From contig JAEWAU010000077.1 in assembly GCA_023391535.1 (NCBI GenBank), forward strand, positions 1 through 15,584: a stretch of 15,584 nucleotides of DNA. Reading direction: 5' to 3'. Positions within the stretch are counted from its first letter, which is position 1; each line of letters starts with the position of its first letter. A model generated the notes under the pieces. It did no database searches and was not told where the DNA came from. It saw only the letters and a list, made by a program, of their open reading frames with translations. The position numbers and the translations under genes were made by a program. The DNA is from Bacillota bacterium (lineage in GTDB: Bacteria > Bacillota > Clostridia > Oscillospirales > Ethanoligenentaceae). This document shows, piece after piece, positions 175-15,534 of this stretch.

Positions 175-807
175 ATGGAAGAAAATCTCGGCGGCAAAAC
201 CGTCCGGCTCCAGACCGTGCTGCGCCTGCCTTATTACAGCTCGCACGCGGAGGACGCGCGGATTTCCACGGAGGATCTGTATGTCCGGCCGCTGCCGGAG
301 GGCGGCGCGCTCGTGTATGGAAGCTGCCGCGTCACGCTGCTGTTCAGCCGCACCGATTCCAAAGGCGAGCGGTTTTACGGCGTCGAAAGCAAGGACATCC
401 CCATGTGCGAAACGGTGCCGTGCCCGCAAGGCGCGTCGGGCCGCCTGCTGGCGCGCTTCGAACCGGAGCTGCGCTGGCAGCACGGCGGAACCGGCTCCTA
501 TCTGTGGGAAATTGCGGCGGAAGGGCAGCTTTCGGTGCAGCAGGAAAATACGGAGCGGCGAAGCACCGCGTTCGGAGAAACGCCGGGCGCCGCGGAGCCG
601 GAAGGCACGGCGCCGGGCGTGCCGGCGTTTGCCGAAGCGGACGGAACGTCCGACGGCGTCACCGTTTTTCCGCTCGGGAAGCTTGGCCTGAACGCGGGCC
701 AGGCGCTGGATCTCGGCAGCGCCGCGCTCGGCCGCCTGTTCAGCGAAGCGGATGCGGCGCCCGCGCAGGGCCGGAATCCCGGAGCGCCTTCGGCTCCGAA
801 AGATTAG
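175..807 (+). CDS. Hypothetical protein (about 210 aa). The ORF track starts it at 76, but the ATG at 175 has a strong RBS. No family recognised by eye; Ala/Pro/Gly-rich C-terminal half.
   Basis: Open frame 76..807. GGGAGG at 162-167 sits 7 nt before ATG 175. The opposite-strand 488-aa ORF 106..1572 is Arg-rich high-GC noise. Confidence 0.5.
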   Translation: MEENLGGKTVRLQTVLRLPYYSSHAEDARISTEDLYVRPLPEGGALVYGSCRVTLLFSRTDSKGERFYGVESKDIPMCETVPCPQGASGRLLARFEPELRWQHGGTGSYLWEIAAEGQLSVQQENTERRSTAFGETPGAAEPEGTAPGVPAFAEADGTSDGVTVFPLGKLGLNAGQALDLGSAALGRLFSEADAAPAQGRNPGAPSAPKD

Positions 808-1146: not shown

Positions 1147-2391
1147 ATGGTCATAAACATGACGCAAACGGTGTTGGACGTTCCGTTCTGGACAGCGGAA
1201 GCAAAGGTGCCGAACCAGTATCCCTACCTGACGGAGGATTTGGACTGCGAGGTGGCCGTGGTGGGCGGCGGCATCACGGGTGCCCTGTGCGCATACGCGC
1301 TGGCGAAAGCGGGCGTGAACACGGTGCTTCTGGATTCCGCTCTCATCGGTTTTGGCGCGACGGGCACGGCGTCCTCCATTCTGCAATACGATATCGATTA
1401 CGATCTCTCGAGTCTGAAAGACCTCATCGGCATCGAAAATGCGGTGCGCGCCTACCGCGCCTGCGCGCGCGGCCTGGACGAGATCGACCGGCTGGTGCGC
1501 GAGCTGGGCGCGAACGTGGGCTTTTCGCGGCGCGACAGCTTCTATTATGCCCAGGACCCGTGCGACGCGCACACCATCAAGCAGGAATATCTATTGCGCC
1601 GCCGCCACGAATTCCCGGCGGAACTGCTCGACAGCGCCCGCGCGGCGGACCGCTTCTCGTTCCGCGTGGAAGCGGGCATCTACGCGTCCAACATGGCGGG
1701 CGAGGTGGACCCGTACCGCCTGACGCACGCGGTGATTGCGGACGCCGTTTCCGCCGGCCTGCGCGTATTCGAGAACACGCCCGTGGAAAGCGCTTCGCCC
1801 GAGCTTTCGGGAATCCGGCTCACCACGCACACGCATCACACGGTCACGGCCAAAAAGATGGTGAACGCCACCGGGCTTGCCGCGGCGCGGGAAGCCGGGC
1901 ACGTGGTGCAGAAGCGCACCACGTTCTGCGTAGTCACCGCGCCCGTGCAGGGCTTCGACGGCTGGTACAACCGCTGCGTCATCCGCGACAACTGCCCCGG
2001 CTCGGTGTATCTGCGCACGCTGCCGGACGACCGCATTCTCATCGGCGGGCTGGATACGTGCTTTTTGGATGTCCGCGGCGCTCTCGCCGGCATCCTGCCC
2101 GTACACAGCGCCGCGAACAGCCGGTTCGATTACCTGGAGCACCGGCTCGCCTCCATGATGACGGGTATCGACGGCATCGAGTCGGAATACCGCTTCAAGG
2201 GCGCTACGATCGATACGGGCGACGGCCTCCCCTATGTGGGAGAACGGCCGGACTGCCCGAACGTCTATTACACGCTCTGCGGCGGTTCAAACGGCATCGT
2301 GTTCGCGCAGCTCGCGGCCGACCTTGTGCGCGACTTTTACCTCGGCGGCGACGCCGCCGACTGCGACCTCTTCGCCTTCGGCCGCCTCTAA
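1147..2391 (+). CDS. FAD-dependent oxidoreductase (DAO / glycine-oxidase-like family).
   Basis: N-terminal Rossmann motif VAVVGGGITGALCAYALAKAGVNTVLLD. Length 414 aa. Start ambiguous: ATG 1147 lies directly after AAAGGA, and ATG 1159 is 12 nt downstream. Confidence 0.8.
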   Translation: MVINMTQTVLDVPFWTAEAKVPNQYPYLTEDLDCEVAVVGGGITGALCAYALAKAGVNTVLLDSALIGFGATGTASSILQYDIDYDLSSLKDLIGIENAVRAYRACARGLDEIDRLVRELGANVGFSRRDSFYYAQDPCDAHTIKQEYLLRRRHEFPAELLDSARAADRFSFRVEAGIYASNMAGEVDPYRLTHAVIADAVSAGLRVFENTPVESASPELSGIRLTTHTHHTVTAKKMVNATGLAAAREAGHVVQKRTTFCVVTAPVQGFDGWYNRCVIRDNCPGSVYLRTLPDDRILIGGLDTCFLDVRGALAGILPVHSAANSRFDYLEHRLASMMTGIDGIESEYRFKGATIDTGDGLPYVGERPDCPNVYYTLCGGSNGIVFAQLAADLVRDFYLGGDAADCDLFAFGRL

Positions 2392-8602: not shown

Positions 8603-9085
8603 TCAGCCTTTCGCGAACAGCAGGGATGCCTGCAATACGCCGGCATACGCCGCCCAGAGCAGCAGCGGCAGCAGCAGGAAGCCGGCGGCGCGGTCCGCGC
8701 GGAAGAACCGCACGGTGGCCAGCAGCAGGTACAGCAGCAGGAGCAGCAGGCACACGAACGCGGCGAAATGCAGCCCCAGCGCGAAAAAGAGTACGCTCCA
8801 CAGCACCTGGAACGCGAGCTGCAGCAAAAACGCCGAAAGCGCCCCTTTCGCCCTTTCCCCGTCTTTACGCCACACGCGCCAGAAGGCGATGCCCGAAAGC
8901 AGGTAAAGCGCGCCCCAAACCGGCCCGAACGCCCACGCGGGCGGGGCGAACGCCGGCTTTTGCAGCATGGCGTAGATTTCCCCGGCGTTTTGCGACGCGA
9001 GCGCTCCGAGCGCCCCCGCTCCGAACGTCAGCAGCAGCGAGGCGACGAGCTTCAAAGCCGAGCTCCCTTTTGCCGAATCCGCCAT
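8603..9085 (-). CDS. tspO: TspO/MBR family tryptophan-rich sensory protein (translocator protein homolog).
   Basis: About 160 aa with five TM segments and Trp-rich conserved blocks (FAPPAWAFGPVWGALYLLSGIAFWRVW, LLLWAAYAG). Start ATG 9085 lies 7 nt after GGAGAAGGAG. Confidence 0.8.
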   Translation of the reverse strand: MADSAKGSSALKLVASLLLTFGAGALGALASQNAGEIYAMLQKPAFAPPAWAFGPVWGALYLLSGIAFWRVWRKDGERAKGALSAFLLQLAFQVLWSVLFFALGLHFAAFVCLLLLLLYLLLATVRFFRADRAAGFLLLPLLLWAAYAGVLQASLLFAKG

Positions 9086-9124
9086 ACGCACTCCTTCTCC
9101 CGGTTTTCACCGTACGTCCCATTC

Positions 9125-9163
9125 TATGCCCGCGCGCGCACCGTTATGCCCGGGCGCGCACCG
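9125..9163. repeat. Tandem direct repeat (2 x 19 nt, 20-bp period) in the tspO/mazF divergent region. Candidate operator.
   Basis: TATGCCCGCGCGCGCACCG / TATGCCCGGGCGCGCACCG, 17/19 identical. The minus strand of the first unit ends in the TAGAAT -10-like hexamer of the putative tspO promoter (9121-9126). Confidence 0.5.
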
Positions 9164-9349
9164 AACTCGGACAAAGTGAAAAGTTGTCCCACATCACACC
9201 GGCGGCGAATATACTGAACCAGAAGCGAAAATATTTTTCCCGCTTTGCCAATACCCGACAGACATCTGTTTTGAAATATATGGATATTCAAGGGAATTTC
9301 ATGTTTAAACGGCGCATTTTTGCGGCACAATAAAAATGGTTCCGGCAAT

Positions 9350-9460
9350 CCTGCAGCATTTCCAGAAAAGATGGATGCATTCCGAAGCGATTCGCCTTTT
9401 GCCGGAGGCAAACAGACGAATCGCGGCTTCCCCCGATTTTTATGGAATTGCCGCCATGCG
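9350..9460 (+). repeat. Copy C1 (plus orientation) of the ~105-nt element. It forms the 5' leader of mazF.
   Basis: cctgcagcatttccagaaaag...ccgaagcgattcgccttttgccggagg...acagacgaatcGCGGCTTCCcccgatttttatGGAATTGCCGCc. The first 21 nt are the exact reverse complement of 10723-10743. Confidence 0.65.
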
Positions 9461-9512
9461 CTTCCGAGGCGCCGCCGGGGCCGTAGAAAATCTTACCGGA
9501 GAGTGGAGAGTC

Positions 9513-9890
9513 GTGACGGTTCACAGAGGAGAAATCTATTACGCCGATCTCAGCCCCGTTGTCGGGTCCGAGCAAGGCGGCGTGCGGCCGGTGCTGATCG
9601 TGCAGAACGACGTCGGCAACCGGTACAGTCCCACCGTGATCGCGGCGGCGATCACGAGCCAAACAGCTAAAACGCGGCTGCCCACGCACATCAACATCAA
9701 TGCCGACAGCTGCGGGCTTTCGAAAAATTCCGTGGTGCTTCTCGAACAGATTCGGACCCTCGACAAGAGGAGGCTCAAAGAGCGCATGGGCACGCTGGAT
9801 ATACCTTCCATGCAGAAGGTGGACAATGCGCTCACCATCAGTTTCGGGCTTGGCCTGAAAGGTTCCAGCCGGGGCGTGGAACATACATAA
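9513..9890 (+). CDS. mazF: MazF/PemK-family mRNA interferase (EndoA/NdoA-like endoribonuclease toxin).
   Basis: Near-identity blocks to Bacillus EndoA: [28 protein letters not shown] and [19 protein letters not shown] start 9513 follows RBS GGAGAGTGGAGAG. The in-frame upstream 59 codons (from ATG 9336) have no RBS and overlap the repeat element. Confidence 0.85.
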
Positions 9891-9918
9891 AACTGTCCCG
9901 GAAAAGAATACCCGATTT

Positions 9919-9966
9919 TCGGCGCTGTGAAACGCAAATTCTGCGCTTTGCGGCGCCCCTTTTTTG
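9919..9966 (+). terminator. Rho-independent terminator after mazF.
   Basis: Nested stem GGCGC..CGCAAA-uucugcgc-UUUGCG..GCGCC followed by CCTTTTTT. Confidence 0.6.
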
Positions 9967-10120
9967 CCCGGGAATAACGTGCGCGCGCCGCGCGAATACT
10001 ATGAGCAGTTCCATTTCTGTTCGGGAGAAGCCGAAAAAAAACCTGCAGGAAATGCCGCCGCACAAAATCCGTTTCCTATCGGGCTTCGTACCGCTATTGT
10101 AGAAGGAAGGATGGACCGCA

Positions 10121-10306
10121 ATGCCCAATATCACCGACCGGGAGCTGGAAACGCTGCAGAATCTGCTCGGGAACGAGCAGGTGCTCGTAAAAAAGTACCG
10201 CTTTTTCGCCTCCTCCTGCACCGATCCTCAGCTCCGCGTCAAATTCCAGCAGATGGCGGCGCGCCACACGGACCATTTCAACCGCCTGCTCAGCTACCTG
10301 AACTGA
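10121..10306 (+). CDS. Small CotF-family (Coat_F domain) spore coat protein, 61 aa.
   Basis: Coat_F-like N-terminal pattern TDRELETLQNLLGNEQVLVKKY. RBS GGAAGG 10 nt upstream of the ATG. Paired with a second Coat_F gene, as in Bacillus yraD/yraF. Confidence 0.65.
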   Translation: MPNITDRELETLQNLLGNEQVLVKKYRFFASSCTDPQLRVKFQQMAARHTDHFNRLLSYLN

Positions 10307-10360
10307 ACACACCGCCGAAAGGCGCAGCGCCGAAAATGCGCGGAAAGGAAAGCCGCACCG

Positions 10361-10639
10361 ATGGATCAGAATCAGAACAGCGCCAACGTCCTGGGCGACC
10401 GGGAAATGCTGGAGGATTTTATCTCCTCCCAAAAGCACCTCACGGAAAGCTATAATGCATTCGCCAATACCTGTGCCACGCCCAATCTGCGAGACGAATA
10501 CATGAACATCCTCAAAGACGAGCACCAGATTGAGGCGGAGCTGCTCGACGAGTCGCTCAAGCGGGGCTGGATGCAGATTCAGCAGGCAGACCTGCAAAAA
10601 GCGGCGCAGCTTAAGCAGCAATATCAGAACGCTTTTTAG
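10361..10639 (+). CDS. CotF-family (Coat_F domain) spore coat protein, 92 aa.
   Basis: LGDREMLEDFISSQKHLTESYNAFANTCATPNLR is typical of Coat_F domain proteins. RBS GGAAAGGAAAG 7 nt upstream. Confidence 0.7.
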   Translation: MDQNQNSANVLGDREMLEDFISSQKHLTESYNAFANTCATPNLRDEYMNILKDEHQIEAELLDESLKRGWMQIQQADLQKAAQLKQQYQNAF

Positions 10640-10743
10640 CAATTCCGGTAAAGATTGAGAAAAGCCGTATTTTGTCTCGGTTTGGCAAAATACCCCCGAA
10701 ATATCCCGGAATGATCCGATCTTTTCTGGAAATGCTGCAGGCT
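10639..10743 (-). repeat. Copy C2 (minus orientation) of the ~105-nt element. The most divergent copy; its end overlaps the cotF stop codon.
   Basis: Reverse complement begins cctgcagcatttccagaaaag, a 21-nt exact match to C1, and ends ...ctttaccggaattgct. Confidence 0.6.
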
Positions 10744-10765
10744 GGCGGGAAACCGCCCGGCAAAC

Positions 10766-10803
10766 GGCTCCGGACCGCGCGGGCGCGTTCCGGAGCCTTT
10801 TGC
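10766..10803 (+). terminator. Rho-independent terminator for the cotF pair.
   Basis: Perfect 8-bp inverted repeat GGCTCCGG / CCGGAGCC with a 16-nt GC-rich loop, followed by TTTTGCC. Confidence 0.55.
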
Positions 10804-10810
10804 CGGTTTA

Positions 10811-10908
10811 TAGCAACTTCATAAAAAATTGAGAAAAGTTGCGTTCCGCCCCTCCGGCGGAAAGGCGGAACGCTTCGGAACCTGCCAAACTTTTCTGGAA
10901 ATGCTGTA
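10811..10908 (-). repeat. Copy C3 (minus orientation) of the ~105-nt element, in tandem with C2.
   Basis: Reverse complement: tacagcatttccagaaaag tttggcaggttccgaagcg ttccgcctttccgccggagg ...GCAACTTttctcaattttttatgAAGTTGCta. The hairpin stem covaries with C1 and C4. Confidence 0.65.
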
Positions 10909-10916
10909 AAGAGCAC

Positions 10917-10958
10917 AAAAAGCGGAGGACCTCCCATAACGGGAAGCCCTCCAGAGGT
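10917..10958 (-). terminator. Rho-independent terminator of the SASP gene (minus strand).
   Basis: Minus-strand RNA GGAGGGCUUCCC-GUUAU-GGGAGGUCCUCC forms a 12-bp stem with two G-U pairs, followed by GCUUUUUGUG. Confidence 0.7.
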
Positions 10959-10959
10959 C

Positions 10960-11127
10960 TTATTTTGGTACGTTGCGCTCCGCCATCTCAATCGCCTTTT
11001 TGACGATATTGCCGCAATCGCGGCTTGAAACGGAACCCCAGCCCTCGCGTTTGACCTGTTCGTCAACCCCGAGTTCCTTGGCTATTTCATATTTGAGCTG
11101 CTCGCTCATCATGGAATGCCTGCCCAT
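10960..11127 (-). CDS. Alpha/beta-type small acid-soluble spore protein (SASP), 55 aa.
   Basis: MGRHSMMSEQLKYEIAKELGVDEQVKREGWGSVSSRDCGNIVKKAIEMAERNVPK. The KYEIA-ELGV and GSV..R.CGNIVK blocks are hallmark SASP motifs. RBS AAGGGGG 8 nt upstream of ATG 11127. It is the C-terminal part of a spurious 608-aa ORF. Confidence 0.8.
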   Translation of the reverse strand: MGRHSMMSEQLKYEIAKELGVDEQVKREGWGSVSSRDCGNIVKKAIEMAERNVPK

Positions 11128-11466
11128 CGCTAAGACCCCCTTCATGGTGTTGCCATGATACGCTTCAAAGAGAGGCGTTTCCGGGATGCACGGATTCCGG
11201 TTCGGCGCGTTTAGCTTTCGTTTTCCCGCCATAAGCGGGAAGGACGCGAGCCCTTCGTGTCTTCCGCTTCGTCCGTGCGCTCTTATTGTGTGCGCGCCGC
11301 GCAAAGATATGCGCCTCCAAAAAACGGCTGCGGCATCCTGGCAAAAGCAAAAATATTTCTTTGTTTCCCGGTTTATTTTGAACGCGCAGCCGCCAAAGCG
11401 GCCGTATCGCGCATAAACCGCCCCGCGCGCGCATAAGATTGCACCGGCACGGTTCGCCGATCCGCC

Positions 11467-11495
11467 TTGCGAAAAAGTGCGGAATATGATACAAT
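11467..11495 (+). promoter_or_regulatory. Strong sigma-A-type promoter with extended -10 driving the dac gene.
   Basis: -35 TTGCGA (11467-11472), 17-nt spacer, TGaTACAAT extended -10 (11487-11495). Predicted TSS about 11502, just before the start of repeat copy C4. Confidence 0.65.
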
Positions 11496-11505
11496 ATAAA
11501 TAATG

Positions 11506-11618
11506 CCGTTTCCAGCATTTCTGGAAAAACCGGCATATTTCAATGCATTTCGCCGAATCGAGAGAGACAGACGGAATGCAGTTCCTCCCGATCTTTATGG
11601 AATTGCTATAGCGATGCG
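11506..11618 (+). repeat. Copy C4 (plus orientation) of the ~105-nt element. It forms the entire 5' UTR of the dac gene.
   Basis: ccgtttccagcatttctggaaaaacc...atgcatttcgccgaatcg...acagacggaatGCAGTTCCtcccgatctttatGGAATTGCtatagcgatgcg. Here the 5' motif has an inverted central tetranucleotide (CTGG versus CCAG) and folds as its own 7-bp hairpin UUUCCAG-CAUUU-CUGGAAA. Confidence 0.65.
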
Positions 11619-11661
11619 GCCCGGAAAACGGCCGGACATCCGGAAGGGGCGACAAAGCGTT

Positions 11662-12846
11662 ATGAGGCGAAAACCACCCTGCGGTAGAATGATACTTTCT
11701 GCATTGCTGGCGGTTTTTTTCTTGTTTACAGGCTCCGTCCTGCCTGGCTCCGCCGCAGCGCCCGCCGCGGCGAGTTTTGCCTCCTCCGCTCCCGATATCA
11801 CCGCCGTGAGCGCCATTGTGGCGGACGCGGGCACCGGCGCCATCTTCTACGAGAAAGACATGCACCGCGCGATGTACCCGGCGAGCATCACCAAAATTCT
11901 CACGGGGCTGCTTGCCGTGGAGCGCGGGAATACGCAGAGCGCCTTCGCGGTGACGCCCACGGCGCTTTCCGCAATGCCGTCCAACGCGGCGCGCGCGGGG
12001 CTTGTTTCCGGGGAGCAGATCACGCTCGACGAAGCGCTCTACACCATGTTTCTCGCTTCGGCCAACGATTCGGCGAACGCCATCGCCATCCAGGTCGGCG
12101 GCTCCATCCCGAATTTCGTGCAGATGATGAACGCGCGCGCCAAACAGCTCGGCGCCGTGGACAGCCATTTCGACAATCCCAGCGGGCTGCCGGATAAAAA
12201 CAACCTCACCAGCGCCTACGATATGGCGATCATCACGCGTCAGGCCCTGGAAGAGCCTTCCCTGATGAAATATTTCGGCGCGAAATCCTACGTGATGCCC
12301 GCAACGAACAAATATCCCAAAACGCGCGCGTTCACCACGCTTCAGAAGATGATGAAAGACACCGCCTACCAGTACGACGGCACCATCGCGGGCAAAACCG
12401 GGTGGGAAACGATGTCCGGCCACACGCTGGTGACGGCCGCGCAGCGAAACGGCCGCACGCTCATCTGCGTGGTGCTCAGAAGCAGCGACGGGTATTCGGT
12501 GTACCAGGATTCCATCAAGCTGCTCAATTACAGCTTCACGTTGCCCGCGTCCTACAGCGTCGGCTCGCTTCTGGCGCCGGCAGCCGCGCAGCCTTCGTCT
12601 TCGGCCCAAAGCACACGCTTCGCCTCCTCTTCCCCCGCCGTACCTTCCAAAGCGGCGGTTCATACGGGAAAAATCGCCGTCCCGCGCGATATGGGCACCA
12701 CCGCGGCTCCGATTCTGCTCCTTTTGTTCATCCTCTGCCCGTTCGTCCTTTTCCTGCTGCTGCGCCGCCCGAAGCTCGCCGCCCAACAGCCCGAGCCGCC
12801 CCGCGCGCGCATCCGGCCGCGCCGCCCGCCTGAAGGACGCCCGTAA
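11662..12846 (+). CDS. D-alanyl-D-alanine carboxypeptidase (peptidase S11; DacB/DacF-like low-molecular-weight PBP) with signal peptide and C-terminal membrane anchor.
   Basis: Active-site motifs ASITK (SxxK), SAND-like SANDSAN and KTG (AGKTGWE). N-terminal signal MRRKPPCGRMILSALLAVFFLFTG; hydrophobic C-terminus ILLLLFILCPFVLFLLL. ATG 11662 with RBS GGAAGGGG 11 nt upstream. The opposite-strand ORF 10960..12786 is spurious here. Confidence 0.85.
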   Translation: MRRKPPCGRMILSALLAVFFLFTGSVLPGSAAAPAAASFASSAPDITAVSAIVADAGTGAIFYEKDMHRAMYPASITKILTGLLAVERGNTQSAFAVTPTALSAMPSNAARAGLVSGEQITLDEALYTMFLASANDSANAIAIQVGGSIPNFVQMMNARAKQLGAVDSHFDNPSGLPDKNNLTSAYDMAIITRQALEEPSLMKYFGAKSYVMPATNKYPKTRAFTTLQKMMKDTAYQYDGTIAGKTGWETMSGHTLVTAAQRNGRTLICVVLRSSDGYSVYQDSIKLLNYSFTLPASYSVGSLLAPAAAQPSSSAQSTRFASSSPAVPSKAAVHTGKIAVPRDMGTTAAPILLLLFILCPFVLFLLLRRPKLAAQQPEPPRARIRPRRPPEGRP

Positions 12847-12973: not shown

Positions 12974-13411
12974 ATGAAACTGACGCAGGAAGACGACTAC
13001 GCGCTGCGAGTCGTTCTGTTCCTTTACCGATACGGGCAGGACCGGCGCATCGAGGCCAAGATGATCGCCGAGCACGAGAATGTTCCGCTGCGTTTTCTGC
13101 TCAAGCTGCTGCGCAAGCTGGCCGTTGCGGGCGTAGTGAAATCCTATATGGGCTACGGCGGAGGCTACGCCGTGGAAAAGCCGCCCGAACGCGTGAACCT
13201 GCTGGAGGTGATCGAAGCCATCGAAGGCCCGCTCGCCGTAACCAAGTGCCTGGAAGACGTTTCGGGCTGCAACCTCGGGCGCGCCGGCTCGTGCGAGATT
13301 CACCGCGCGCTGGGCGGCGTGCAGCAGCGTCTGGCGGAGGATCTGCGGACCATCACCTTTCAGAATTTGCTGAAGGAGTTTCCGCCGTGCGCGCCGGACG
13401 CGCAGGTATAA
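12974..13411 (+). CDS. Rrf2-family transcriptional regulator (IscR/NsrR/CymR-like) with a three-Cys Fe-S ligand motif.
   Basis: N-terminal wHTH (YALRVVLFLY..., RFLLKLLRKLAVAGVVKSYMGYGGGY) and C-x7-C-x6-C (KCLEDVSGCNLGRAGSC). RBS GGAGAG 6 nt before the ATG. Confidence 0.85.
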   Translation: MKLTQEDDYALRVVLFLYRYGQDRRIEAKMIAEHENVPLRFLLKLLRKLAVAGVVKSYMGYGGGYAVEKPPERVNLLEVIEAIEGPLAVTKCLEDVSGCNLGRAGSCEIHRALGGVQQRLAEDLRTITFQNLLKEFPPCAPDAQV

Positions 13412-13499: not shown

Positions 13500-14009
13500 T
13501 CAACCGTCCTTATGCCGCACCATGAGGTAGATATAAAAGCCGATCGAGCCGAACATCACCAAAAGCGTTACCGGCAAAAACCATCCGCCGAGGCCGATAC
13601 GCGCGTTTCGCGCGACTTCCACGGTCTGGAACTGGATGTAGCTGAAGATCAGCACCACCACCGTTTTGAGTACGACGATCAGTTCGCGCCCGAGCCGGTA
13701 GAGCACGGCCGCGTTTTTTTCGTTGATTTCCACGGGGAAATTGAAGATTTTAGGAAAGCGTTCGAGCAGCGTGAGCCCGGCCGCCATAACGGCCATCAGA
13801 ATGGGCATCAGGAGCAGCGAGCCTTTTCCGCCCCAGGCATCCGCCGCGCCGGAAGCGCCGAAATGCGTAGGGATGCGCACGGGCAGGCTGCCCCACACCG
13901 CCGCGAGCACGGCCAAGTTGGCAAGCACCAGCACGGCGCACAGAGGCTGGAGTATCTTTTCGAGCAGCGACCATTCGGGGTTGCGATCGGGCCTGCCGGT
14001 TTCAGGCAT
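13500..14009 (-). CDS. DUF1648-domain membrane protein (SdpI/YfhL-like N-terminal domain family), about 169 aa.
   Basis: RIPTHFGASGAADAWGGKGS matches the DUF1648 signature (IPxHxNxxGxxDGxGSK), and four TM segments are predicted. Start chosen at MPETG (14009); the ORF track extends to 14261 across the yaaH promoter repeats, which is unlikely to be real. Confidence 0.6.
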   Translation of the reverse strand: MPETGRPDRNPEWSLLEKILQPLCAVLVLANLAVLAAVWGSLPVRIPTHFGASGAADAWGGKGSLLLMPILMAVMAAGLTLLERFPKIFNFPVEINEKNAAVLYRLGRELIVVLKTVVVLIFSYIQFQTVEVARNARIGLGGWFLPVTLLVMFGSIGFYIYLMVRHKDG

Positions 14010-14164: not shown

Positions 14165-14213
14165 ATACCGTGAACGTTACGCATACCGTGAACGACAATG
14201 CGTACCGTGAACG
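14165..14213 (+). repeat. Three tandem direct repeats of (A/G)TACCGTGAACG (period 18-19 bp), plus an overlapping palindrome, upstream of the yaaH-like gene.
   Basis: ATACCGTGAACG at 14165-14176 and 14183-14194; GTACCGTGAACG at 14202-14213; degenerate fourth unit TCAACG follows. GCGTACCG-TGAA-CGGTACGC palindrome at 14200-14219. A sigE/sigK-like CATACCGT lies inside unit 2. Confidence 0.6.
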
Positions 14214-14253
14214 GTACGCCGTCAACGCAGGACCGAAAAGGACAGTGATCGGT

Positions 14254-15534
14254 TTGGTCATCTATGTGGTACGGCCCGGGGACAGCGTCTATTCCATCGC
14301 CCGGGCACACGGCGTCACGCCCGAAAGCGTCATCCGCACCAACCGGCTCGCAAACCCCGCGCAGCTCGTCGTGGGGCAGGCGCTGCTGCTCCCCGTGCAG
14401 GGCTACGAATACACGGTGCGCAGCGGCGACACCGTCTATTCCATCGCGCGCGCCACAGGCGCGAGCCAGGCGTCCATTTTCCGGGCGAACCCGCAGATTC
14501 CCCAGAGCGGCGCGCTCTCGCCCGGGCAGGTGCTCATAATCCCCGCGCCGGAGCCGAAGCTCGGCACCATCGAGGTCAACGGCTACATATTCCCCGGCTC
14601 CAATGAGCAGGTGGTGCGCGACGCGCTGCCCTCCCTCACCTATCTGAGCGTTTTTTCCCACGAGGTTGCCGCGGACGGCACCCTCAGCACCGTGGACGAC
14701 GCCAAATGGATTGCCATGGCGCGTGCGGCGCGCGTGGCGCCCATCATGGTGGTGGCGAACATCCGCCCCTCGGGCGGCTTCTCCAGCGATATTGCCGGCG
14801 CCGTCCTCGCCACTCCCGAAACGCGAAGCAAGCTCATCGACATCATCGCGAGCACCATGCAGCGCAAGAACTACTACGGCGTGAACATGGACCTCGAGTA
14901 CATCCGGCCCGAGGACCGCGAAAATTACAACCAGTTCCTGCGCGAGCTTTCGGCGCGGCTGGGGCAGCTGGGCGCTCCGCTGCTCACCGCCGTGGCGCCC
15001 AAGGTCTCGGCCACGCAGCAGGGCCTTCTCTACGAGGCGCACGACTACCCCGTGCACGGCGAGGTGGCCAACCGCGTCATCCTCATGACCTACGAATGGG
15101 GCTACCTCGCGGGCCCGCCGCAAGCCGTGGCGCCGCTCGACCAGGTTCGCCGTGTGCTGGAATACGCCGTAACGGCCATTCCGCCCCAGAAGATCCTCAT
15201 GGGGGTGCCCAACTACGGGTACGACTGGACCCTTCCCTACCGGCGCGGGACGCTCGCCACCACGTTCTCGAACGTCGAAGCCGTAAACCGCGCCTTCCGC
15301 AACAACGCCGAGATCCAGTTCGACCAAACGGCCCAGTCTCCGTTTTTCAACTACACCGACGCCCAGGGCCGCCAGCATGTGGTGTGGTTCGAGGATGTGC
15401 GCTCGCTTCGGCAGAAATTCCTGCTCGTGCACGAGCTCGGCCTCGCAGGCATCAGTTACTGGACCATTGAGCGCCCCTTCCCACAGAACCTGGCGCTGTT
15501 AAACTCCATGTACGATGTGAAAAAGCTGCTGTAA
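14254..15534 (+). CDS. Spore peptidoglycan hydrolase of the YaaH/SleL type: two N-terminal LysM domains and a GH18 catalytic domain.
   Basis: LysM1 YVVRPGDSVYSIARAHGVTPESVIRTN; LysM2 YTVRSGDTVYSIARATGASQASIFRAN. GH18 active-site region YYGVNMDLEYIRPED resembles YaaH DGVNIDFE. Start uncertain: TTG 14254 lies 11 nt after AAAGGA; in-frame GTG 14245 and the track's GTG 14170 are less plausible. Confidence 0.8.
   Translation: MVIYVVRPGDSVYSIARAHGVTPESVIRTNRLANPAQLVVGQALLLPVQGYEYTVRSGDTVYSIARATGASQASIFRANPQIPQSGALSPGQVLIIPAPEPKLGTIEVNGYIFPGSNEQVVRDALPSLTYLSVFSHEVAADGTLSTVDDAKWIAMARAARVAPIMVVANIRPSGGFSSDIAGAVLATPETRSKLIDIIASTMQRKNYYGVNMDLEYIRPEDRENYNQFLRELSARLGQLGAPLLTAVAPKVSATQQGLLYEAHDYPVHGEVANRVILMTYEWGYLAGPPQAVAPLDQVRRVLEYAVTAIPPQKILMGVPNYGYDWTLPYRRGTLATTFSNVEAVNRAFRNNAEIQFDQTAQSPFFNYTDAQGRQHVVWFEDVRSLRQKFLLVHELGLAGISYWTIERPFPQNLALLNSMYDVKKLL

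Follow-up and report, generated by a model that had tools for sequence, protein, structure and literature searches.

A hairpin upstream of mazF in a Clostridia contig probably marks the right end of a MITE/REPIN-like palindromic repeat

The analysis of a 15,584-nt stretch of clostridial DNA, hereafter the window, indicated that the hairpin at positions 9421–9456 (UCGCGGCUUCCCCCGAUUUUUAUGGAAUUGCCGCCA) probably forms the right end of a non-coding, palindromic repeat of only approximately 100 bp that is of the MITE/REPIN kind. This assignment follows from the combination of inverted ends, variable interiors, constant length, derivatives, and occurrence in any orientation, together with the absence of the element at the orthologous sites of relatives and a hairpin potential that is symmetric between the strands. 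The element is a further example of a known repeat class and is ordinary in kind; its host is a poorly studied Clostridia genome. The hairpin had been interpreted in a preliminary description as part of a structured RNA, on the basis of compensatory changes in three copies and a conserved UUUUAU loop.

A search with nhmmer detected five full copies of the element in the window (C1–C5, E = 5e-30 to 2e-35). The window also contains a 55-nt deletion derivative, C10, which was absent from the preliminary description (Table 1). C10 consists of the left inverted repeat fused to the right-end hairpin, without the central stem-loop. The genes were assigned on the basis of Pfam, GC content by codon position, and the gene calls that accompany the source contig. 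All copies were intergenic or touched gene ends, the right end of C2 overlapping the Coat_F stop codon (10637–10639). C1 and C4 were located in gene leaders in the sense orientation, C2 and C3 between convergent genes, and C5 antisense to both of its neighbors. In agreement with a non-coding element, the sole open reading frame across a copy was a gene-caller extension of mazF, which had been over-called by 59 codons and ran through C1; the likely mazF start codon lies 60 nt downstream of this copy.

Table 1. Positions of the repeat copies, their parts, and the neighboring genes in the window.
Feature	Position	Strand	Context or basis
210-aa ORF	about 175–807	+	
Copy C5	883–982	-	antisense to the flanking + genes (210-aa ORF, DAO oxidoreductase)
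DAO oxidoreductase	1159–2391	+	
GH2, MFS, Band-7	between 2391 and 8603	-	
TspO	8603–9091	-	
Copy C1 (CAGCA...TGCCG)	9354–9453	+	nhmmer E = 2e-35; between TspO (-) and mazF (+)
C1 left terminal inverted repeat (5′ box), CAGCATTTCCAGAAAAG	9354–9370	+	alignments; pairs with the right end
C1 central stem-loop, GCGAUUCG..UUUGCC GGA GGCAAA..CGAAUCGC	9387–9424	+	helix covarying between copies
C1 local hairpin, GCGGCUUCC / GGAAuuGCCGC	9423–9454	+	right inverted repeat paired alternatively with the subterminal arm
C1 right terminal inverted repeat, ATTTTTATGGAATTGCCG	9436–9453	+	complementary to the 5′ box; includes UUUUAU
mazF	9513–9890	+	likely GTG start at 9513
Mini copy C10	10003–10057	-	55 nt; mazF–cotF spacer
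Two Coat_F genes	10121–10306 and 10361–10639	+	
Copy C2	10637–10737	-	between convergent Coat_F (+) and SASP (-)
Long perfect hairpin	10757–10806		
Copy C3	10811–10906	-	immediately past the SASP terminator-like hairpin
SASP	10960–11232	-	
Sigma-70-like promoter, TTGCGA-17-TACAAT with TG extension	11467–11495		upstream of C4
Copy C4	11513–11608	+	dac leader, 80 nt upstream of the dac ATG (11689)
dac	11689–12846	+	
Rrf2	12974–13411	+	
DUF1648	13500–14009	-	
LysM-GH18	about 14188–15534	+	

The nhmmer profile also matched the reverse strand of every copy, and through these matches the ends of the element were recognized as inverted repeats. The 5′ box reads CAGCATTTCCAGAAAAG and the reverse complement of the 3′ end reads CAGCAATTCCATAAAAG; the terminal inverted repeats are approximately 17–20 bp long, with CAGCAWTTCCAGAAAAG on the 5′ side and its imperfect complement CTTTTATGGAAWTGCTG. 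Since the ends are inverted repeats, the 3′ arm of the hairpin (GGAAUUGC) and the “UUUUAU loop” together represent the right terminal inverted repeat. The UUUUAU motif itself is real; however, the sequence complementary to it is AGAAAAG in the 5′ box, and it therefore belongs to the terminal inverted repeat, not to a conserved loop as had been proposed.

In the minimum free energy (MFE) RNA folds of six of the seven full copies compared, the 3′ arm paired with the 5′ box, giving a long rod that comprises the terminal stem and the central stem-loop, and C4 was the only copy whose MFE fold used the local hairpin. The same rod was obtained with RNAalifold on the alignment, a check that had been suggested for the local hairpin and that did not predict it. 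Folding of single-stranded DNA also produced the rod on both strands, with z-scores from -3.3 to -5.9. In C1, C3, and C4, the local hairpin and the central stem overlap at their outer GC positions, so the two structures compete. The local hairpin is thus the less stable alternative, in which the right inverted repeat is placed on the subterminal arm instead of on the left repeat. The possibility that the copies reflect chance similarity or an alignment artefact, with no real family or structure behind them, is hardly credible: the isolated local hairpins of most copies do fold no better than shuffled sequences, but E-values between copies ranged from 1e-14 to 1e-35, the 5′ box was identical at 17 of 17 positions in C1, C2, and C3, the z-scores of whole-element folds reached -6, and the same ends occur in three genomes.

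The sequence of the hairpin at 9421–9456 agreed with the preliminary description, and GCGGCUUCC does pair with GGAAuuGCCGC. In the isolated fold of C1, GCGGC and UUCC are paired with GCCGC and GGAA, respectively, with a UU bulge between the two helices. This hairpin alone had an energy of -11 kcal/mol (z = -1.86) and was equalled by 11 of 200 dinucleotide shuffles, which it beats only modestly. Equivalent hairpins were confirmed in C4 (GCAGUUCC/GGAAUUGC, -10.6 kcal/mol, z = -4.0) and C3 (GCAACUU/AAGUUGC). When the arm-to-arm duplex energies of all seven full copies were compared, C1 (-13.6 kcal/mol), C4 (-12.4), and C3 (-10.2) were the strong ones, and lower stability was observed in C2 (-7.1), C8 (-5.6), C6 (-2.9), and C5 (-2.5 kcal/mol). 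The local hairpins of C5, C6, and C8 alone were at the level of shuffled sequences (z = +0.48, -0.26, and -0.42, respectively). Good right-end hairpins are confined to C1, C3, and C4; those of C2 and C8 are moderate, and C5 and C6 have none. The three copies on which the hairpin had originally been based, out of the five then known, are exactly the three best-pairing ones, and the hairpin forms in these three but is not conserved across the family, its stem being weak or lacking in the four remaining full copies. In C5 and C6 the stem is disrupted without compensation, an observation that the preliminary description itself had named as contrary to its reading.

Covariation was evaluated on only seven independent full copies, namely C1–C5, C6, located beyond the window on the scaffold, and C8, found in the relative L126. 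For the local hairpin, columns of a nine-row alignment were compared with 500 column shuffles. The proportion of paired cells was 81.7% versus 80.0 ± 1.2% in the shuffles, 104 of which reached the observed value, and the covariation score was 0.302 versus 0.258 (reached by 71 of 500). A single double-sided change was found, from U-A to C-G in C3, and 285 of 500 shuffles equalled or exceeded this number; the remaining changes were one-sided switches among A-U, G-U, and G-C. An alignment-free comparison gave -7.8 kcal/mol for arms of the same copy versus -6.4 kcal/mol for mixed arms, and 1670 of 20,000 permutations were as good (p ~0.08). Compensatory changes in this stem, reported earlier for three copies, do not exceed chance in either test.

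A different result was obtained for the other helices of the rod. The sequence of the central stem differs in each copy while its pairing is kept, with double-sided changes in five of eight pairs; arms of the same copy had a mean duplex energy of -18.5 kcal/mol versus -11.1 kcal/mol for mixed arms, a difference matched by only 2 of 20,000 permutations. The terminal helix is largely invariant, with 81% of the cells paired over 16 columns, a single column pair that varies (from A-U to G-C and C-G), and p ~0.07 for own versus mixed arms. Jointly, the terminal and central helices beat 500 of 500 shuffles in the percentage of paired cells, the number of double-changed cells, and the covariation score. 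A hairpin is therefore maintained in the element by selection or by a repair process, and it is the central stem, not the stem at 9421–9456. The earlier view of a structure under selection stands insofar as hairpin capacity is kept; it extends neither to the stem originally described nor to RNA in particular.

The comparison of the strands likewise gave no preference for RNA. The two strands were equal in folding ability, with summed RNA fold energies of the seven copies of -233.5 kcal/mol for the forward and -247.9 kcal/mol for the reverse strands, and among the rod pairs of these copies, G·U, which can form only in the forward RNA, occupied seven cells and A·C, which pairs only on the reverse strand, eight. 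The orientation of the copies relative to the neighboring genes was mixed, and no match to Rfam 15 was found at gathering thresholds, with noise only at E-values up to 10. The idea of selection on RNA rather than on DNA finds no confirmation in these four results, and nothing points specifically to RNA or to a dedicated structured RNA. Several regulatory elements were also considered and rejected. CIRCE, Spo0A boxes, and promoters of sporulation sigma factors did not fit the motifs by eye. For an intrinsic terminator, only the central stem of C3 was terminator-like, and for a T-box or riboswitch there was no Rfam signal and the pairings were not linked to a ribosome-binding site (RBS) or a terminator.

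A structured RNA family, acting as a cis-regulatory leader or a small RNA and perhaps switching between the rod and the local 3′ hairpin, is accordingly quite unlikely. Such a family would be in line with the true covariation of the central stem, with the two mutually exclusive partners of the 3′ arm, and with the location of some copies: C4 fills the dac leader, beginning a few nucleotides past a strong sigma-70-like promoter, and C1 and C8 are in the sense orientation about 50–60 nt upstream of start codons. However, besides the Rfam result and the strand symmetry, the local hairpin neither covaries nor persists in C5 and C6, the alternative pairings involve no RBS or terminator, and the genes next to the copies share no common function. 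C5 is antisense to both neighbors, convergent genes flank C2 and C3, and C6 is located past the groEL terminators. Furthermore, the element is not conserved at the orthologous dac or SASP sites of relatives, and subfamilies with the same ends have unrelated interiors.

The distribution of the repeat was followed over 61 kb of the scaffold (positions 89,664–150,885 of ENA ERZ28601458, LEMO22-1 scaffold_32, 151,685 nt). This region contained six full copies (C1–C6), the mini copy C10, a 5′ half copy (C7) located just past an AraC-family gene, and relic ends. Truncated, mini, and relic forms of this kind are decay products typical of mobile repeats. Five of the full copies were within 11 kb, whereas the remaining ~46 kb had only one full and one half copy, and no further full copies were found 20 kb outward on either side along the scaffold. 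The window is thus a local hotspot of the repeat, and simple genome-wide spread does not account for such strong clustering.

Comparison with contigs of related strains (L124, L128, L129, L131, L132, L134, and L135) demonstrated that every covered copy position was occupied. The contigs of three of them, originating from other samples (L124, L128, and L129), begin inside or beside C3, as expected if the repeats break assemblies. Relative to strain L124, whose dac gene is 98% identical, the elements differed by 2.7% versus 3.0–5.5% for other intergenic DNA, i.e., they diverge between strains like other, neutral intergenic DNA. Uncompensated changes between strains included one in the central stem of C3 and one in the 5′ box of C2 (strain L131).

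Beyond these strains, the dac homologs of the next relatives had at most 70% identity, and that of Ethanoligenens 47%, which indicates that the lineage is poorly sampled. The element was not found upstream of dac in the relatives L125 and L126. In L126, with 61% dac identity, the SASP–dac–Rrf2 synteny is the same; the SASP–dac spacer lacks the element, but L126 is too diverged to align. At the same time, a 21-kb locus of L126 carried at least five elements that share the terminal sequences (TACAGCAWTTCC...GGAAWTGCTGTA) and have three unrelated interiors. These included C8, C9 with a perfect 13-bp central stem, a 55-nt mini copy at positions 1820–1872, and two subfamilies with unrelated interiors, one of them truncated and abutting another element. 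A 100-bp copy was also detected near topoisomerase and germination protease genes in L136, a host-like IMG/VR locus of a spore-former. Thus, the same ends with different interiors occur in three spore-former genomes (the source genome, L126, and L136). The interiors vary by copy or subfamily and nearly always carry a stem-loop of their own, and the length from CAGCA to TGCTG is 96–113 bp, mostly 100 bp, despite the unrelated interiors.

Searches in other collections gave mostly chance matches. In a scan of genome contigs for the 17-mer CAGCATTTCCAGAAAAG, the matches listed were all due to chance or located in coding sequences, and all six matches of a metagenome contig scan (5′ box plus TTCCG) belonged to one unrelated freshwater gene. 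Scans of viral contigs revealed one true copy, that of L136; a broadened pattern recovered the same copy, and another pattern yielded chance matches in phage genes. BLAST with an AT-rich copy against phage and plasmid collections gave no match.

These data also bear on the possibility that the element is not actively mobile at present and serves the host as DNA or RNA punctuation, similarly to what has been proposed for REP/BIME, ERIC, and Correia sequences, acting as a protein-binding hairpin, a terminator, or an mRNA-stabilizing stem. We regard such a function as unlikely. The copies past SASP, past groEL, and between convergent genes would suit it, as would the highly conserved 5′ box, the stable positions of copies between strains, and the terminator-like score of the C3 central stem with CUUUUCUC. 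On the other hand, copies also occupy promoter-proximal leaders and antisense positions, most of them lack a U-tract after their stems, truncated and mini copies persist, and the divergence between strains is that of neutral intergenic DNA.

At most ends, the left CAGCA is preceded by YTA and the right TGCTG is followed by TAR. TA was present at both ends of C3, C6, C8, L126 subfamilies 2 and 3, and the L136 copy, as well as of C4 in strain L124; the GC-rich copies C1, C2, and C5 had no TA flanks. In one L126 copy, a possible 9-bp direct repeat (GATTATATT/GATTATACT) was observed instead of TA, and a consistent multi-base target duplication was not found among the copies. Since TA is self-complementary, the TA flanks may merely extend the palindrome; the YTA/TAR ends would fit a TA target duplication that is inseparable from the palindrome.

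We infer from these patterns that the repeat may have been mobile and that its copies may have been spread by a transposase that acted on the conserved ends in trans. A candidate enzyme would be a TA-targeting DDE transposase of the IS630/Tc1-mariner type; alternatively, an HUH/Y1 enzyme might act on single-stranded DNA hairpins, as for REPINs and IS200/IS605. Over the 61 kb of scaffold, the called genes included no transposase, RAYT among them, and no full-length parent element bearing these ends was detected; likewise, no pair of filled and empty sites occurred among the strain contigs compared. Hairpin capacity may be kept as a transposition substrate or for genome stability. Template switching between inverted-repeat arms can yield compensatory-looking changes without selection, and hairpin capacity might alternatively be regenerated in this way. 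Copies within transcripts, such as those in the mazF and dac leaders and downstream of SASP, would fold in RNA as well, and a possible side effect is a change in the processing or stability of the transcript.

Two features would also fit a regulatory role: the 5′ box is conserved more strongly than the 3′ end, and C1, C4, and C8 are in the sense orientation about 50–80 nt upstream of start codons. A more specific variant, in which both exclusive pairings of the right arm are used, can be considered only as a long shot. The leader copies of dac, mazF, and an amylase gene in a relative would then have been co-opted as RNA switches or processing sites in a neighborhood of sporulation genes, or the element would be a REPIN-like replicator of single-stranded DNA hairpins that relies on an HUH transposase of its own in spore-forming Clostridia.

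The results guard against filing the end of a repeat as a new riboswitch-like RNA, since a “covarying hairpin with a conserved loop” is how a partly read palindromic mobile repeat looks. The family described here, unmatched in Rfam 15 and in the phage and plasmid collections, consists of units of ~100 bp with the ends CAGCAWTTCC...GGAAWTGCTG and is present in three or more uncultured genomes of spore-forming Clostridia type. It breaks assemblies and misleads gene callers, as in the case of mazF. Judging from their position in the dac and mazF leaders, copies may also alter the expression of adjacent genes. If a transposase is found, the family would lend itself well to studies of why such elements retain their hairpin capacity.

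Among known systems, the ends of IS200/IS605 elements are asymmetric, strand-specific, and not inverted repeats. Unlike them, the element is symmetric, and no TnpA or TnpB gene is located nearby. Its subterminal hairpins and lack of a clear target duplication are nevertheless like those of IS200/IS605-derived palindrome-associated elements (PATEs), as far as these can be compared by description. IS608 reportedly inserts 3′ of TTAC, and in most AT-rich copies of the element TTAC or CTAC directly precedes the left end, a further likeness to the PATEs.

The Correia/NEMIS elements of Neisseria, RUP of Streptococcus pneumoniae, and MITEs derived from IS630/Tc1-mariner are MITEs with terminal inverted repeats and TA targets. 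Such MITEs are non-coding, 100–150 bp long, and bounded by terminal inverted repeats of ~20 bp with TA at both ends. They are intergenic, often located near promoters or co-transcribed, form long RNA hairpins, and include subfamilies with internal deletions. Measured against this general description, the element shares the size (96–113 bp), the non-coding nature, the terminal inverted repeats, the dispersed, mostly intergenic copies, and the existence of internally deleted forms; unlike usual MITEs, it has an interior stem-loop with compensatory changes, and no cognate IS was identified in the 61 kb.

REPINs, or REP-BIME, are REP doublets that form hairpins and are mobilized by RAYT/TnpA-REP (PMC3116915, PMC8266576). 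Their inverted ends are conserved, the spacer is defined by its length and hairpin capacity, with compensatory changes being common, and the stable rod fold is accompanied by a less stable “clover” fold with separate hairpins at the two ends (PMC3116915). A REP unit is itself a palindrome of 20–50 nt. REP palindromes are preceded by GTAG (PMC8266576). In the element, YTAC (TTAC or CTAC) precedes the left arm, and GTAG, ATAG, or GTAA follows the right arm; since GTAG does not precede the palindrome, strict REPIN membership fails on this one tested feature. In addition, more than half of the copies have weak end hairpins, no RAYT was present among the called genes of the 61 kb, and the density outside the window is low. 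The host also differs, being a spore-forming Clostridia lineage, whereas the genomes named in the REPIN study are those of Pseudomonas, E. coli, and Nostoc (PMC3116915). In other respects the likeness is close. The element is extragenic, multi-copy, and ~100 nt long, leaves singlet and truncated remnants, and consists of two conserved inverted units and a spacer that form one long hairpin in single-stranded DNA or RNA. As in REPINs, the length of the spacer and its hairpin capacity are kept through compensatory changes in the central helix, and the local hairpin at 9421–9456 resembles the alternative “clover” fold.

A 16-17-nt AT-rich string, TACAATATAAA(A)TAATG, was found shortly 5' of both C4, the full repeat copy in the dac leader, and C7, a truncated half copy. 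The dac promoter takes its -10 box from the occurrence at C4, and the occurrence at C7 overlaps an AraC-family gene at its stop codon; a weaker version, CACAATAAAAATGG, is present at C1. The string could represent an AT-rich site at which insertion is preferred or, alternatively, an extended form of the element.

In L126, the corresponding locus of a relative, C9 (L126 8141-8254) lies between GATTATATT and GATTATACT. These flanks are at odds with the TA pattern seen elsewhere in the family and possibly represent a 9-bp target duplication. The element at L126 7040-7175 is a composite of two subfamilies, one represented by a 34-nt 5' fragment (TATAGCATTTCATTTTAAGAATGTGAGACAGCGC) and the other by a complete copy directly adjoining it; the right end of the composite and the 3' end of a DUF347 gene overlap.

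Coordinates of the features associated with the repeat copies
Feature	Location	Description
GC-rich hairpin CCGGCAAACGGCTCCGGACCGCGC / GCGCGTTCCGGAGCCTTTTGCCGG	window 10757-10806	arms 24 nt, complementarity 92%
String TACAATATAAA(A)TAATG at C4	window 11490-11505	
String TACAATATAAA(A)TAATG at C7	L130 882-898	
MazF as called on the source contig	window 9336-9890	184 aa, start ATG 9336

The repeat hotspot (window 8603-12846, also L130 and L133) has a sporulation-flavoured gene neighbourhood, with genes for SASP, two Coat_F proteins, and a D-Ala-D-Ala carboxypeptidase, and SipL nearby; a germination protease gene is located near the copy in L136, a third spore-former locus. Within the hotspot, the GC-rich hairpin is placed exactly between C2 and C3 in the convergent-gene spacer, is not followed by a T-run, and lies outside the repeat family. 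The MazF frame called on the source contig runs through repeat copy C1; the start of the PemK/MazF domain is GTG 9513, a codon with the ribosome-binding site GGAGAG. No mazE-like antitoxin ORF was visible on either side of mazF in the window; thus, this mazF looks like an orphan.

Contigs from three other samples (L124 1-83 and the starts of L128 and L129) begin inside or just beside C3, which suggests that the repeat breaks short-read assemblies of the source organism.

Five IMG/VR phage contigs (L138-L142) have TTTACAGCATTTCCAGAAAAGATGAAATTGCTAT in common (e.g., L139 2776-2810); the region around it appears to be coding and conserved. The shared sequence consists of the 5' box, the left terminal inverted repeat of the element, followed immediately by the right-end-like GAAATTGCTAT; it resembles a minimal end-to-end palindrome, and the resemblance may be coincidental. 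A degenerate relative of the element was detected at L145 5152-5258 (...CCATTTCCAGAAAAGAGCGGG ... CCCGCTCTTTCCGG...), where the AGCA core is absent and the ends are inverted.
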